Below, piece after piece: positions 18,832-27,047 of a stretch of DNA of 32,000 bases (positions within the stretch are counted from its first letter, which is position 1; each line of letters starts with the position of its first letter). The DNA is from Simonsiella muelleri ATCC 29453. GTDB lineage: Bacteria > Pseudomonadota > Gammaproteobacteria > Burkholderiales > Neisseriaceae. Made by a program: the position numbers and the translations under genes. The stretch is taken from assembly GCF_002951835.1 (NCBI RefSeq), contig NZ_CP019448.1:707293-739292 (forward strand), in the 5' to 3' direction. The notes under the pieces are model-generated. The model made no database searches, had not been told where the DNA came from, and saw nothing but the letters and a program-made list of their open reading frames with translations.

Positions 18832-19179
18832 TACTGTAATAAATGTCAAGTGAAAAATCAAAATAAATTATTGGCAAAACCCATTTCGCAACATTTGTTT
18901 GTTTAATCATCAGTCCTTTTAGTTATCACATCATTCAGGGTGAATGCTAAACGTTAAACAAAATTAAAAAAGCGCGTCAAGGTTAAAGTGAACGCAAGCG
19001 ACCTTGACGCGCTTTTTTAATTTCGTTCAACTACGCATACCCCCTGAACGATGCGATAACGGACTGATGATTAAACAAACAAACATTGCTACATTAGCTA
19101 TTTATTAAAATAATGTGGCATCGAGCCACATTATTTTAAACCCCCATCTCTTCTGCTCCTACGTCCTGATGACGTTTAA
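18832..19179 (-). other. Structured non-coding module 'E' (copy 1) 3' of the transposase
   Basis: A hairpin at 19109-19135 abuts the stop codon. A ~190-nt imperfect long hairpin spans 18894-19083. Its apex is a perfect 18-bp stem (18966-18983 with 19001-19018). The module ends at the TACT junction. Confidence 0.7.
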
Positions 19180-20128
19180 CATCAAAGTATGTATTGTTCT
19201 TCAAGCAAGTATAAGCATATTTGACTAATTTAACCATCATCAATACATAAACTTGCTTAGGGTGCTTTCCGCGCGCTAAATGCGCTTCAAACCAAGAACG
19301 CCACAACTTACTTCGAGTACAAGCCGCGCGGGCGGGCATATAAAGAGCCTTACGAATAGGACGGTTACCCATCTTAGAAATTGTAGATAAACCTTTCTTA
19401 TTCCCTGAATCACGAATAATAGGAGACAAGCCAAGCCAACTAACTAAATGGCGATATGTTGGAAATTTGTCCAGATCAATCATAACACTTAATAGAATTT
19501 GCGCTGTTGTTTTACCAATACCAACAATACTTTGTAAAATCTTTTGCTTCCTCATCAACTGCTCACTTTTATTAATCAAATCTTGCATTTCTTGCCTACA
19601 CAATTCAATTTGTTTAGACAAGAAATCAATCATTTGATTAATTGAGTGTAAAGCTACAGAATCGGCAACACTTAAACGATTTTTTTCCATTATCTGCATT
19701 TCTAAAAGCTGCTCAATTCGTCTATGCAAACTTTTCAATTTAACTTGCTCAACACTTTCGGGCTGCCATTTTTCAGGATTCTCTTTCGCGCAAAATTCAG
19801 CAATTAATTTTGCGTCTTGCTTGTCTGTTTTGACACGCTTCAATTTAAATTGCGCGTAGGATTTAATAATTGAAGGATTTACGACGCTCACTAACGCGCC
19901 ATTTTCAAATAAGAATTTTGAAACTGGCAAATAATAAACATTCGTTGCTTCACTGCAAACATGAATTGTATTCAATCCAATTTTATACTTTGCAAATTGT
20001 GTCAATAAATTATTAAAACCATTTGAATTGTTATCAATAATAAAATTAATTGCTTCATTGTTAATCAATAAACAACAATCAATTTTATTCTTACTAATGT
20101 CTAAACCTAAATGCGCTTTAATTTCCAT
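19136..20128 (-). CDS. IS110-family (DEDD, Piv/PivNM/Irg-like) transposase/recombinase
   Basis: 330 aa. N-terminal LGLDISKNKID...VCSEATNVYY...VSVVNP...KTDKQDA gives the DEDD motifs. C-terminal IVGIGKTTAQILL...GLSPIIRDSGNKKG...ISKMGNRPIRKALYM is the Transposase_20 domain. Confidence 0.9.
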   Translation of the reverse strand: MEIKAHLGLDISKNKIDCCLLINNEAINFIIDNNSNGFNNLLTQFAKYKIGLNTIHVCSEATNVYYLPVSKFLFENGALVSVVNPSIIKSYAQFKLKRVKTDKQDAKLIAEFCAKENPEKWQPESVEQVKLKSLHRRIEQLLEMQIMEKNRLSVADSVALHSINQMIDFLSKQIELCRQEMQDLINKSEQLMRKQKILQSIVGIGKTTAQILLSVMIDLDKFPTYRHLVSWLGLSPIIRDSGNKKGLSTISKMGNRPIRKALYMPARAACTRSKLWRSWFEAHLARGKHPKQVYVLMMVKLVKYAYTCLKNNTYFDVKRHQDVGAEEMGV

Positions 20129-20300
20129 TTCAAACCTTACAAATAAGGGCTTTATCCCAAGATACCGTTATGATTAAAATAAAAAATGTATGTGCCAATC
20201 TATCATAATAATTTTAAATTAAGGCAGCAAATATGCAGGCATCACACATTTAAACACTTTAACATAGTATAATTATTAATTTTCTTATTTAGGACTAAAC

Positions 20301-20741
20301 ATGAAACAAAATATTATCATTACCCTGTTATCGGTTATTTGTGGCATATTGGGCTACATTGCAGCCAACATAAAGAGCGAAGTTCCTAAAACTAACACAC
20401 TACCAAACATACAAGCAACAAAACCAAGCGAATTTCAAAAAATAACAAAAACCAATGAAAATGAAATCATTGATTATGGACTTATAAAAGGTAAATTAAA
20501 GCCACAATATTCCAAAGAATCCCTTGAAAATGAAGAAGAAGGTTCAGTGGTAGTAGAAATAATTGTTAATAAAAATGGAATTATTGAATCAGCAAAAATT
20601 TCTCACAGTAGTGGGCACGCAAGATTAGACTACACAGCAATTAAAACAGCAAAGAACGAAAAACTAGAACCGCAAACCAAACAAGGTAAACCGATCAGAA
20701 CACGCTATTTAATTTCATACACATTTAACCTTGCTGAATAA
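20301..20741 (+). CDS. Membrane-anchored TonB C-terminal-domain protein, opposite strand inside the prophage
   Basis: 146 aa. It has an N-terminal TM helix. PQYSKESLENEEEGSVVVEIIVNKNGIIESAKISHSSGHARLDYTAIKTAKNEKLEP follows the TonB_C consensus (P.Y....EG.V.V...V...G.V....V..SSG...LD). Confidence 0.75.
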   Translation: MKQNIIITLLSVICGILGYIAANIKSEVPKTNTLPNIQATKPSEFQKITKTNENEIIDYGLIKGKLKPQYSKESLENEEEGSVVVEIIVNKNGIIESAKISHSSGHARLDYTAIKTAKNEKLEPQTKQGKPIRTRYLISYTFNLAE

Positions 20742-20823
20742 CAGAAAGACTTGGATTATTATCTTTTTAAAAACTGCGTAAAATTTTAACACATAATGTC
20801 AAAACTGTAGCAGATTACTCAGA

Positions 20824-24913: not shown

Positions 24914-25003
24914 AAGTAATCTCCGAAAGTTTAAAAAATAGGCTGCTTCGTGGGGTTTTTGACGCGGCAGCCCAACACGTCAAAATAAAAAATCTTTCAG
25001 GCT

Positions 25004-25312
25004 TTAAGACTGCGCTGTTTTCGGCTTTTCATTCTGTAATACTTGCAGCTTCGTTACTAAGTTAACAGTATTATTGCCTTTTTTCACTGGCGAAAATTCA
25101 ACTTCAACTAAACAAGGCAATTTGCCACGCAAATTAATTAATTCACTATGCTGCTCAGATTTGCCAAATTCCAACTCAACTACATCAACACCAAACTCTT
25201 TTTCCTGATGTTCATAAACTGGAACCTCGATATAAAGGCGTGTATAGTCGTATTCTTGACCGTTTTCCGTTTTTCCTTTGTTCCATTTGATTTTACGAAG
25301 TAATGTTTTCAT
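25004..25312 (-). CDS. Putative ssDNA-binding protein (gV-like)
   Basis: 102 aa. It is translationally coupled to Rep by an ATGA overlap at 25309-25312. Its size and position match gV. No sequence motif was recognised. Confidence 0.5.
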   Translation of the reverse strand: MKTLLRKIKWNKGKTENGQEYDYTRLYIEVPVYEHQEKEFGVDVVELEFGKSEQHSELINLRGKLPCLVEVEFSPVKKGNNTVNLVTKLQVLQNEKPKTAQS

Positions 25313-26922
25313 GATGTTTCCTTATGTTTAGGGTTTAAATTTTGTTGCTTATATTGTCCGTAACGAAGATGCAAATATTCATCATAAGTCATCGACTCTT
25401 GTAGCTCTCTTGTAAAACCTTTTCCAAATACTGCCCTTAAAAATAAATCCGATTTCAAATTGTTACGAAATTGCTTCAATTCTTCGGTATTCACTTTAGG
25501 CTTTTGTTCTTGTTGAATTTCTGATTCAACTAGCTTTTTTTCAAAAATATAATTTCTTAAATCAATATCGGATGGTTTTCTCTTGTTTTCTTTTATAAAT
25601 TCAACAAATGGATAACCAGCATCAAATGCGTTAGGGTGCAATCGTTTATTCATTTTTGCCCCTACGTTTTCAAGAAGTTGAACAATCTCTTGTTCTTCAA
25701 AACCCATAAACTTTAATGTTTTAATCGTTGGGCTAACTTGAATTGACGCGTGATGAAGCATATGCTCAACACTGATTTCTTTCATTTTTTGGAGTCGATC
25801 AGGCTTTTTTAAATCTTCTGAATATATCATGAATAATTCTTCACAAATTGGGTACGCCCCTGTTAAGTATTCACCGGGTTTCAATAAAATTTCATGCTCA
25901 AGCACAATATCGCGGTTTCGCATTTGCAGTTCAAAACGAACCCAAGGGCTACTCCTGTCTCCCTGTTCAATGCCTTTTTCATAAACGCGAACCACGCGAG
26001 AACCATTTTTACGACTTCCAATATACAAAGTCCGCCCACCGTCAGGCGCATTCAGCCAGCCCACTCCAGCCATTTCAGCGTTAGGCTGTGTATTTCCTGA
26101 TTTAAATTTACCAGCAGCCCAATCAGAATAGGCTTGTAATGGCGTATATTCGCCTTTTAAAAAATCATGTGCTAAATCAATTCGCGTTATTTTGCATGAT
26201 GGCGCATAATCCTTTATCCAGTCATAAAGACGATTTTCCCATCCGTCCAAAGCTGCCGCTAAACCAACACCCGAAACATAAATACAAACAGTCCCACCTT
26301 GTTTATCTCCATTACCCCAACCAAAAAATCCGTATTTAATGCGTTCATCAGATTTCAAACCCATATTAGCTGTTTTAGGATAACCATTACGACCGTTTCC
26401 ACGACTTGAAAAATAAAAACCAAAAATTTCAAAAAGCATGGCTTCAGCATTGGCTAAAACAAGCTCATCTTCAGCATCTTCACTTTCACATTGAACACTT
26501 TGTTCTAAAGTTAAAAGAGAATATTTTGAAAAAGTAATAGTGATGGTATCTATATGTGCAGACATACCTACACCTTTACGTAAAGGAACGGCTTTAATTT
26601 CGCCATTAACCATTACATAATGATTTTGTATTTCTGAAATATGACTTACCCCCCCTTGTTTCACAGGCTTAAAATTTTGTCCCCCCGTGTTACTAGTGGG
26701 GGGTGGCTGCACCGCTCCGCAGCCTGCCGCGCACGCGCTGTCTGTCTGCGCATCGGCGCAGCCACTTTCCACAGAACCTAAAGAAGCAATCAAGCGCTCG
26801 TATCCACGAATCGCACTAGATTTGCGTGTATAATCCTTTACAAATTCGCCATTAACATATAATGCAAATTTGCCTTGTTCAGTTTTTACAATTTCATAAT
26901 TCATGTTTTGTAAACTAGACAT
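25309..26922 (-). CDS. Rolling-circle replication initiation protein (Rep_trans / phage gII-like)
   Basis: The ITRIDLAHDF and GSRKNGSRVVRVYEKG regions are typical of the replication initiation factor family found in Nf/MDA phages and pT181-type plasmids. The track start at 26964 is a TTG inside a hairpin, so the ATG at 26922 is preferred. Confidence 0.8.
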   Translation of the reverse strand: MSSLQNMNYEIVKTEQGKFALYVNGEFVKDYTRKSSAIRGYERLIASLGSVESGCADAQTDSACAAGCGAVQPPPTSNTGGQNFKPVKQGGVSHISEIQNHYVMVNGEIKAVPLRKGVGMSAHIDTITITFSKYSLLTLEQSVQCESEDAEDELVLANAEAMLFEIFGFYFSSRGNGRNGYPKTANMGLKSDERIKYGFFGWGNGDKQGGTVCIYVSGVGLAAALDGWENRLYDWIKDYAPSCKITRIDLAHDFLKGEYTPLQAYSDWAAGKFKSGNTQPNAEMAGVGWLNAPDGGRTLYIGSRKNGSRVVRVYEKGIEQGDRSSPWVRFELQMRNRDIVLEHEILLKPGEYLTGAYPICEELFMIYSEDLKKPDRLQKMKEISVEHMLHHASIQVSPTIKTLKFMGFEEQEIVQLLENVGAKMNKRLHPNAFDAGYPFVEFIKENKRKPSDIDLRNYIFEKKLVESEIQQEQKPKVNTEELKQFRNNLKSDLFLRAVFGKGFTRELQESMTYDEYLHLRYGQYKQQNLNPKHKETS

Positions 26923-27047
26923 AATTAAAGCCCCACACTTTAAAAAATAAAGTAGGGGCTTCAATCAGCCTTAAATCAAATAATTGCTTAAAAGCAAAAG
27001 ATACTTGTTAGATTTACAGCCCCCACAGCAGAGGCTCTAATATATAA

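Follow-up and report, generated by a model that had tools for sequence, protein, structure and literature searches.

Two of the described systems close to the element reported here set its background. For the insertion sequence (IS) IS621, the rules by which guide RNA segments pair with DNA have been described together with their tolerance of rG:dT pairs, as has the junction promoter of IS110 elements including IS621 (PMC11208160). Filamentous phages of the Nf/MDA group (MDA, meningococcal disease-associated) insert at a CT dinucleotide inside a short host repeat (PMC7058167). Nf1-Nf4 and MDA carry Rep, small open reading frames (ORFs), a coat protein, a TspB-type adsorption protein, a pVI-like protein, Zot and a terminal IS110 recombinase of the piv/irg type, and their target is the dRS3 repeat (ATTCCC-N8-GGGAAT type). 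Here we analyze a window of 32,000 nucleotides from Simonsiella muelleri ATCC 29453 (contig NZ_CP019448.1, positions 707,293 to 739,292 of the forward strand) that contains a prophage built from the same modules. Its target differs from that of the Nf/MDA phages in being the 3' foot of a terminator formed by a dyad of DNA uptake sequences (DUS).

The element is a temperate filamentous phage, an Nf-like inovirus, and as a phage it is a fresh member of a known group. From comparison of its sequence with those of relatives and of IS621, we consider it very probable that this inovirus of 8,218 bp integrates by means of an IS621-type, bridge-RNA-guided DEDD/serine recombinase. The phage amounts to an IS110-group element in which about 7 kb of phage genes are placed between ~120 nt at the start of the left end (LE) and the bridge RNA-recombinase module. 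An original prediction, made from the window alone, had proposed an Nf/MDA-like filamentous prophage between typA and a membrane-protein gene with a target other than dRS3, and both proposals are borne out, the target being GGCTGCC-CT-ATTATGA next to a DUS dyad. Positions given below are those of the window, features lie on the minus strand unless another strand is named, and L-numbers are labels of the compared loci.

Phage ends, empty sites and the circle junction

Reading of both junctions places the whole prophage at 18831-27046, which comes to 8,218 bp when one copy of the CT core is counted; the empty site and an identical second copy support the same borders. At the right end (RE), the CT core (18829-18830) is followed by the right target ATTATGAAT, within which the 148-aa membrane-protein gene has its start codon, and at the host-LE junction the left target TTCAGGCTGCC precedes the CT core (27047-27048) on the minus strand. 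The host target structure is the typA terminator at 27049-27106 (no strand assigned), an inverted DUS pair, GGCAGCCTGAAAAATT / AATTTTTCAGGCTGCC, recognized from inverted repeat I14, the DUS positions and the empty site. In other S. muelleri strains the site is unoccupied and reads ...TTCAGGCTGCC-CT-ATTATGAAT...; on the recombinase strand this is ...CCAATTTTTCAGGCTGCC-CT-ATTATGAATATTT, which equals left flank, CT and right flank exactly. The expected empty sequence TTTTTCAGGCTGCC-CT-ATTATGAATATTT was found exactly in three metagenomic S. muelleri contigs, in which typA adjoins the membrane-protein gene. The insertion is polymorphic, as had been anticipated for related genomes, and the CT dinucleotide is the sole sequence common to both junctions, with no other duplication.

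The original prediction had drawn the borders at 18832-27005, with a 7-bp core, AGATACT, common to attL and attR and an empty site of the form ...TTCATAATAGATACTTGTTAGATTTACAG... The motif does occur at 18829-18835 and at 26999-27005, and the left border was right to within 1-3 nt. The empty sites in three strains, however, read ...GGCTGCC-CT-ATTATG..., without TTGTTAGATTTACAG; the proposed site does not exist, the att model is refuted, and the right end lies at 27046-27048, which leaves 27005 short by 41 nt. Conserved phage sequence extends over these 41 nt to 27046, into the typA DUS terminator, and they are kept in ten relatives, inside circular phage genomes and in both identical genome copies. 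We accordingly leave the att model practically no chance of being correct. The copy of AGATACT at about 27000 is instead the left-donor-guide segment of a predicted phage-encoded RNA element, donor-binding loop 1 (DBL1), and it resembles the phage end because a left donor guide has the same sequence as the DNA that is recognized.

The second prophage copy in the same genome is 100% identical over all 8,218 bp and sits between TTTTTCAGACTGC-CT and CT-ATTATGTCC, three bases ahead of the uvrA start codon; given this identical copy elsewhere in the genome, the phage has been mobile recently. The S. muelleri genome (CP083930.1; L097-L100) holds four prophages of two types, all with an identical 330-aa recombinase. 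The two further prophages are 98.6% identical to this phage in the LE-Rep region and 99.9% identical in the region of bridge RNA, recombinase and RE, and differ in their structural genes (the coat-to-Zot module). Three insertion sites in this genome read CT-ATT-ATG, where ATG is the start codon of the membrane-protein gene, of uvrA or of an unnamed ORF (window 18826-18830 and the right junctions of L098 and L100). Seated 3 nt ahead of these host start codons, the phage severs the genes from their upstream sequence.

In every relative the RE, downstream of the recombinase gene, consists of TTGAC(A), 9-11 nt and TAC(A/G)GTAT-CT followed by host DNA, and the LE, upstream of Rep, consists of host ...GCC-CT followed by T(A/G)TATATT. 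Behind T(A/G)TATATT, the LE continues with a GC stem-loop, then (C)TGACA(A)GTATCT-hairpin-...TAAGGCTG, and then a terminator that abuts the first start codon. The phage ends, ...TTGACATTTATTACAGTAT-CT and CT-TATATATTAGAGCC, are homologous to those of IS621 as recovered from E. coli, ...CTTGCAGGCCATAACAGTAT-CT and CT-TGTATTATCC..., and the left donor half at the RE tip, ACAGTAT (18831-18837), is identical to the IS621 RE tip. Each end also carries half of a junction promoter: the RE has an outward-facing -35 box, TTGACA (18844-18849), conserved in all relatives, and the LE start has a -10 box, TATATT (27039-27044). Joining RE to LE in silico (ACAGTAT-CT-TATATATT) gives TTGACA-17-TATATT, and a promoter scan at the LE in its integrated state found no promoter-like site. 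The RE-CT-LE junction with both boxes is present in four circular saliva-virome genomes (OR148983, OR148979, PP511689 and OR148970), and the free circular genome form is thus seen for virome relatives of this phage. Scanning IMG/VR for the junction 17-mer ACRGTATCTTRTATATT returned 37 matches, mostly on contigs of 10-430 kb, which we took for chance.

These ends also bear on whether the IS110 gene is an independent hitch-hiker, lying beside or inside an inovirus prophage, and not the integration module of the phage. Such a gene would be no oddity here, since IS110 elements are common in these genomes and L100 has a further, unrelated IS110 gene in its neighborhood. However, the IS-type LE and RE bracket the whole phage and not the recombinase gene alone, circular virion-derived genomes hold recombinase, bridge RNA and RE-LE junction in one molecule, and at least 15 loci in six genera repeat this arrangement, all of which makes a hitch-hiker highly improbable. 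The relatives studied closely come from Kingella, Alysiella, Neisseria, Eikenella, Suttonella and Cardiobacterium, and most keep parts of the order Rep, coat, 111-aa ORF, pIII, pVI, Zot, recombinase.

The recombinase, its predicted bridge RNA and the guides

The recombinase gene (19136-20128) encodes a 330-aa protein of the IS110 family (DEDD_Tnp_IS110, 9e-23; Transposase_20, 2e-22), in agreement with the earlier claim of an IS110 transposase in place of a tyrosine integrase, of which there is none among the element's genes. The protein aligns full-length with IS621 (PDB 8wt6; E 9e-51) and reaches 223.6 bits (cut-off 140) with the NCBIfam equivalog NF033542, "IS110 family RNA-guided transposase". 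Residues D10, E60, D102, D105 and S241 align with IS621 and are invariant in 26 homologues. Homologues number in the hundreds; among 120 listed, the most distant group is about 40% identical and may include the meningococcal-type enzymes. Elements of the IS1111 group are marked by long subterminal inverted repeats and by a guide RNA encoded in the RE, a pattern to which this element does not conform, its predicted RNA sitting upstream of the gene. We also considered an IS1111-style location of the bridge RNA, in the hairpin region of 300 nt that lies downstream of the recombinase gene, and rejected it: that spacer varies from 0 to 300 nt in relatives and shows no loop structure that is conserved.

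Directly upstream of the recombinase start codon, a block of ~125 nt is kept in all relatives and aligns along its whole length with the IS621 bridge RNA. In the window this predicted bridge RNA occupies 20129-20253 and comprises a target-binding loop and a donor-binding loop, DBL2. A covariance model, R1, matches here and nowhere else in the window (119.7 bits, E 3.5e-25), a score to be read with the window sequence and IS621 both among its 16 training sequences. Among sequences outside the training set, R1 also finds the element, in each case abutting the recombinase gene, in Suttonella, L043, an Eikenella metagenome-assembled genome and free-standing IS110 elements of Cellvibrionales, Nitrospirales and Electrothrix. 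The predicted parts are a 13-bp outer stem, a large internal loop, a 4-bp inner stem and a second module of guide, hairpin and guide. Compensatory changes are found in 16 of the 17 pairs predicted for the target-binding loop, and in 16 sequences the hairpin of the donor loop is kept despite differing stem sequence.

We then applied the guide rules of IS621, under which left guides equal the top-strand sequence, right guides equal its reverse complement, and both include the core. The right target guide, taken as the 7 nt before a conserved ATTGG, is ATGATAG in the window (20200-20206) and can form six Watson-Crick pairs and one rG:dT pair with CT-ATTAT. In 19 loci the right target guides were compared with CT and the five host bases next to it, read as reverse complement; they match at 86 of 95 non-core positions, with a mean of 4.5/5 against the cognate flank and 2.0/5 against non-cognate flanks; none of 100,000 permutations reached the observed total. 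The left target guide (TTGCTGCCT at 20222-20230, where the fit is weak in the window) matches at 51 of 77 positions, a value reached by 4 of 100,000 permutations. It tracks the DUS dialect of the host, reading GCTGC/GCAGC in Kingella, Alysiella and Simonsiella, ACGGC in Neisseria and TAGC in Eikenella.

The donor guides, tabulated from 16 DBL2 and 11 DBL1 sequences, follow the phage ends in the same manner. Left donor guides track the RE tip through its variants ACAGTAT, ACGGTAT, ACACTAT (D_HF3_12) and ACAGTAC (Cardiobacterium), the guide of the window's DBL2 being ACGGTATCT (20160-20168) for an RE tip of ACAGTAT-CT. Right donor guides with CAAG or TAAG track LE starts with CTTG or CTTA, and all 12 loci whose LE start can be read obey this. 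The right donor guide of DBL2 in the window, AT[TTG]TAAG (20136-20144), pairs discontinuously with the LE start CTTA[T]AT, which is the pattern of IS621. From this agreement between guides and flanks and from the covarying structure we infer that the RNAs are made and guide the reaction, so that the phage would encode a bridge RNA that explains its choice of target.

The host side of this agreement is a preference for the foot of DUS terminators. Of the 13 distinct insertion sites listed, 11 are found directly on the 3' side of a DUS, and at eight of these the second arm of a DUS inverted-repeat terminator ends in the CT. The sites of L002 and L098 adjoin a DUS or near-DUS and are counted in the 11 as DUS-adjacent only, and the K. 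denitrificans phage occupies the loop of a DUS dyad. The repeats of Eikenella and K. denitrificans we take to be DUS dialects of those reportedly described by Frye et al. 2013. IS621 and the phage both favor the foot of a repeated host hairpin, the repetitive extragenic palindromic (REP) element for IS621 and the DUS for the phage, with a further parallel in the Nf phages at dRS3. Insertion at the DUS foot leaves the flanking genes intact.

Several observations weigh against RNA-guided integration. Folded alone, the window's bridge RNA is no stabler than shuffled sequence (z = -0.32), and support for it therefore comes from covariation and not from energy. A promoter scan upstream of the target-binding loop gave nothing convincing, with a single match, TTGGCA-17-AATCAT, that lies within the RNA, and a search of 18000-27500 against Rfam 15 at E up to 1 returned only chance microRNA-like hairpins and no bridge-RNA family. 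In the standard register, the window's left target guide TTGCTGC-CT matches GGCTGCC-CT at 3/9 positions; the fit rises to 7/9 only when the guide is read one base further in the 3' direction, which puts a U:G pair at the core, and this one-base register shift, which L014 also requires, was chosen post hoc. Finally, two of the four prophages in the genome, L099 and L100, have present-day flanks that fit the guides poorly, perhaps because these copies have recombined or rearranged with each other or because of insertion into a resident phage. As to the left target, we considered its extra C as a post-insertion mutation or an assembly error and rejected this, since the empty sites carry the same GGCTGCC-CT.

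The unremarkable stability of the single-sequence fold also suits an explanation in which the non-coding blocks act as DNA, serving as subterminal recombinase binding sites, with target choice by protein-DNA contacts as was assumed for Piv/irg before 2024. As DNA, the 9-mer A(C/A)(A/G)GTATCT has three copies, one each at the RE tip, in DBL2 and in DBL1, and the bridge RNA is known here as a prediction. By contrast, the stems keep pairing through two-sided changes, which points to a folded single strand, and a stretch of 7 nt, 7 kb away from one end of the element and 1.3 kb away from the other, covaries with host DNA beyond the phage borders, something that binding sites have no reason to do. 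Given in addition that the closest solved homologue is RNA-guided, we regard action as DNA sites as very unlikely and favor guidance by a bridge RNA.

Two of the compared loci concern guide-coding DNA itself. L011 (9950-10010, Eikenella glucosivorans) has a recombinase gene without a phage, and here the host DUS, ...CAGGTAGC-CT, is joined directly to the donor-loop hairpin (GTCTACAGAC...). It looks as if the DNA of the left donor guide, a mimic of the RE tip, served as a pseudo-donor to give a mini-element, with a junction 2 nt off a precise exchange. L086 (1470-1600), an IS621 copy of E. coli, shows a nested partial duplication of the LE in which a second LE start (TGTATTATCC...) follows left-target-guide DNA (GTATCGGGCCT); guide-coding DNA is apparently able to act as a pseudo-target as well.

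A predicted second donor loop in the left end

The LE encodes a further predicted RNA (26925-27038), which consists of a 5' stem-loop (27018-27038), DBL1 (~26966-27016) and an intrinsic terminator (26928-26962). The DBL1 guide, CAAGTATCT (26999-27007), contains the AGATACT that had been taken for an att core. This LE RNA (z = -3.67 for the window sequence) is conserved in 10 relatives and folds into three hairpins that are kept despite differing stem sequences, the DBL1 hairpin pairing through at least five of them. These folds come from each sequence singly, the MAFFT alignment having been too poor for RNAalifold, which recovered only the terminator. DBL1 and the donor loop upstream of the recombinase are paralogues, and both DBL1 guides track the donor. 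Relatives whose recombinases are 39-100% identical to that of the window have DBL1; IS621 lacks it, as does the TspB-type Inovirus D_HF3_12, in which the bridge RNA is present.

Because its promoter exists only at the RE-LE junction, DBL1 would be transcribed only from the circular genome. In engineered systems, target and donor guides function as split RNAs (PMC13604230), and a natural stand-alone donor-loop RNA is plausible for that reason. The role of DBL1 we infer as follows, and tentatively: the bridge RNA may be naturally split, with DBL1, made only on the circle, acting as a sensor of the excised state that loads the recombinase for integration. Two extensions belong to this proposal. 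The terminator lies directly before the Rep start and has GGGGC/GCCCC segments able to pair alternatively, and recombinase binding could govern whether transcription passes on into the replication genes. The second is that a left guide fitted to the DUS dialect found locally would link the hosts that can be lysogenized to the natural-transformation tag in Neisseriaceae. Taken with both extensions, we hold the split-RNA proposal to be possible and more likely wrong than right.

The integration that we favor would begin on the circular replicative form, in which RE and LE are joined through the CT core and the sigma-70 promoter TTGACA-17-TATATT is rebuilt. This promoter would transcribe the short RNA of 5' stem-loop, DBL1 and terminator, and a second RNA, from directly upstream of the recombinase gene, would carry the target-binding loop and DBL2. 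The donor loops would then pair with both sides of the circle junction and the target loop with host DNA, its left guide with the last bases of the DUS and its right guide with CT and the five bases beyond. Strand exchange at CT by the recombinase would leave the phage at the 3' foot of the typA DUS-dyad terminator, three bases before the next start codon.

Phage genes, relatives and significance

Nine ORFs, eight on the minus strand and all intact, lie between typA (27130-28947) and the 148-aa membrane-protein gene (18379-18825). The inovirus set that had been read from the minus strand (a Rep_trans initiator, an ATGA-coupled 102-aa ORF, a pVIII coat, pIII-like and pVI-like proteins and Zot/pI) is confirmed by Pfam, PHROG and NCBIfam, and the hallmarks of Inoviridae, namely rolling-circle Rep, a small major coat protein and proteins of the pIII, pVI and pI (Zot) types, are present in one co-oriented block. 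The Rep_trans rolling-circle initiator (25309-26922; Pfam 3e-29) belongs to an ORF that is open to 26964, its true start being probably the ATG at 26922, and the context GGGGCTTTAATTATG ahead of the start codon is kept in relatives. In L080 (2700-4100), a 95% related metagenome prophage, a DDE_Tnp_1 insertion sequence lies inside the Rep gene after ~100 codons. The start of the 102-aa ORF (25004-25312; phrog_4994, 1.4e-9) overlaps the Rep stop codon (ATGA); its homologues in relatives are 42-68% identical, phrog_4994 carries no known function, and from its position only the product may be a candidate single-stranded DNA-binding protein (gV-like).

The pVIII-like major coat protein of 78 aa (24677-24913) reaches 21.9 bits with Phage_Coat_B, just below the cut-off of 23.5, and 9e-7 with a PHROG major coat family. 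The next gene encodes a 111-aa phage protein with a C-terminal membrane helix (24324-24659), which has no match in Pfam, PHROG or NCBIfam and belongs to no named family. By tblastn it has matches in 11 related prophages and homologues in every related phage, at 34-55% identity. The pIII-like adsorption protein of 504 aa (22660-24174) combines a (GS)n linker, encoded by the 12-nt repeat family D1, with a TspB C-terminal domain (NCBIfam NF041109, 52.8 bits, cut-off 24; Pfam Neisseria_TspB, 20.7 bits, cut-off 20), to which its TspB-type likeness is confined. The pIII-like, TonB_C and 111-aa proteins had been described as resembling nothing that could be named, a statement that needs revision for the TspB domain of the first and the homologues of the last.

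Downstream lie the pVI-like minor coat protein (21871-22173; DUF2523, 6e-16) and the Zot/pI assembly ATPase (20824-21864; 3e-21). The antisense gene between Zot and the bridge RNA (20301-20741, plus strand) encodes a TonB_C protein of 146 aa with an N-terminal membrane anchor (Pfam TonB_C, 2.7e-18; TIGR01352, 57 bits) and has the same position in L066 and Inovirus D_HF35_23; its product may be an accessory protein, for example a decoy for the periplasmic co-receptor of incoming filamentous phages. As in the Nf/MDA phages, there is no secretin gene in the prophage. A megablast search of the element against GenBank phages gave no match, and relatives surfaced only through protein searches.

Two compositional claims of the original prediction also hold. 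No DUS occurs from 18355 to 27092, where the 27 DUS loci in 23.8 kb of flanks lead one to expect 9.3 within the element (Poisson P = 9e-5), and GC content is 34.9% in the element compared with 41.9% in the flanks. The DUS of the window are of the kinds that form the AG-kingDUS and AG-simDUS dyads typical of S. muelleri (PMC7371117). Exact protein matches assign the window to this species.

Between the stop codon of pIII and the start codon of pVI lies an internal insert of 483 bp (22176-22658; repeats D2 and D3, blastn). Its first part (22176-22318) duplicates the last 143 nt of pIII with 94% identity to 22659-22801, and the remainder (22319-22658) is a 92% identical copy of the recombinase 3' end, a long hairpin and the RE. 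The insert junction reads ...ATTACAGTA followed by AAAATTTTAGG, where intact pIII reads ...AAACAAGTA followed by AAAATTTTAGG, with AGTA common to both. We considered the internal RE copy as the product of a second bridge-RNA insertion and rejected it as a canonical one, the junction being ACAGTA followed by AAAATTTT without a CT core. Both identical copies carry the insert, which makes it part of the phage.

This duplication, like the frameshifted recombinase gene of the relative L014, might be expected of a fixed, defective remnant in which the agreement of guides and target records an old event. Against such decay, all nine ORFs are intact and the pIII reading frame is complete despite the duplication, the two copies are identical over their entire length, and other strains retain the empty site. 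We consider a remnant unlikely.

The hairpin just mentioned lies between the recombinase stop codon and the -35 box (18883-19094; repeats I1 and I5) and is imperfect, with a stem of ~100 bp; folded as DNA it reaches -78.4 kcal/mol (z = -16.2), and its second copy is at 22372-22578. L084 keeps a long hairpin with different arm sequences, and in relatives the core GTCAAGG...CCTTGAC is found again at varying positions, behind the recombinase gene or ahead of the bridge RNA, and in L100 between pVI and Zot (2649-2896). The hairpin may be a packaging signal or a minus-strand origin.

Compared with IS621, the phage shares a homologous recombinase, the CT core, the donor ACAGTAT-CT-T(G/A)TAT, the junction promoter, a target loop followed by a donor loop directly upstream of the recombinase gene, and discontinuous pairing of the right donor guide. 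It differs in having ~7 kb of phage genes between the junction promoter and the bridge RNA, a second donor loop after the junction promoter, and a right target guide that appears to be 7 nt long where that of IS621 has 4. Inovirus D_HF35_23 (OR148983) and D_HF3_10 (OR148979) have the same modules, RNA elements and junction, with a TonB-like gene in D_HF35_23. The saliva inoviruses are 65% identical to the window in Zot and 54-56% in the recombinase; they belong to other host lineages, and their guides group with the Kingella prophage L004. The saliva virome paper catalogues these genomes only and does not discuss transposase or integration (PMC10537320).

Like CTXphi and other inoviruses that use XerCD, this phage is temperate and site-specific without a tyrosine integrase of its own. 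CTXphi borrows the host recombinase and uses a folded single-stranded attP site, whereas this phage brings its own recombinase, predicted to be RNA-guided, and by analogy with IS621 would use a double-stranded circle. In the literature that we searched, no paper links bridge or seek RNAs to inoviruses or Nf phages. Because RNA guidance of IS110 enzymes is now textbook knowledge, the mechanism is no surprise in kind; what appears to be undescribed is a phage-sized cargo within the LE, an extra donor loop on the junction promoter, and targets at the foot of DUS that are matched in dialect.

Phages of the Nf/MDA type influence colonization and virulence of Neisseria, and their choice of site has so far been described as a preference for a CT-containing repeat. 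Together, the comparisons above indicate that the whole Nf/MDA-type group may integrate by a phage-encoded bridge RNA. If so, insertion sites would be readable from the phage sequence and reprogrammable, and the group would provide a natural bridge recombinase that moves an autonomous replicon of 8 kb. The link to DUS, if true, would explain why these phages occupy intergenic, non-disruptive seats and why their left guides differ between genera.

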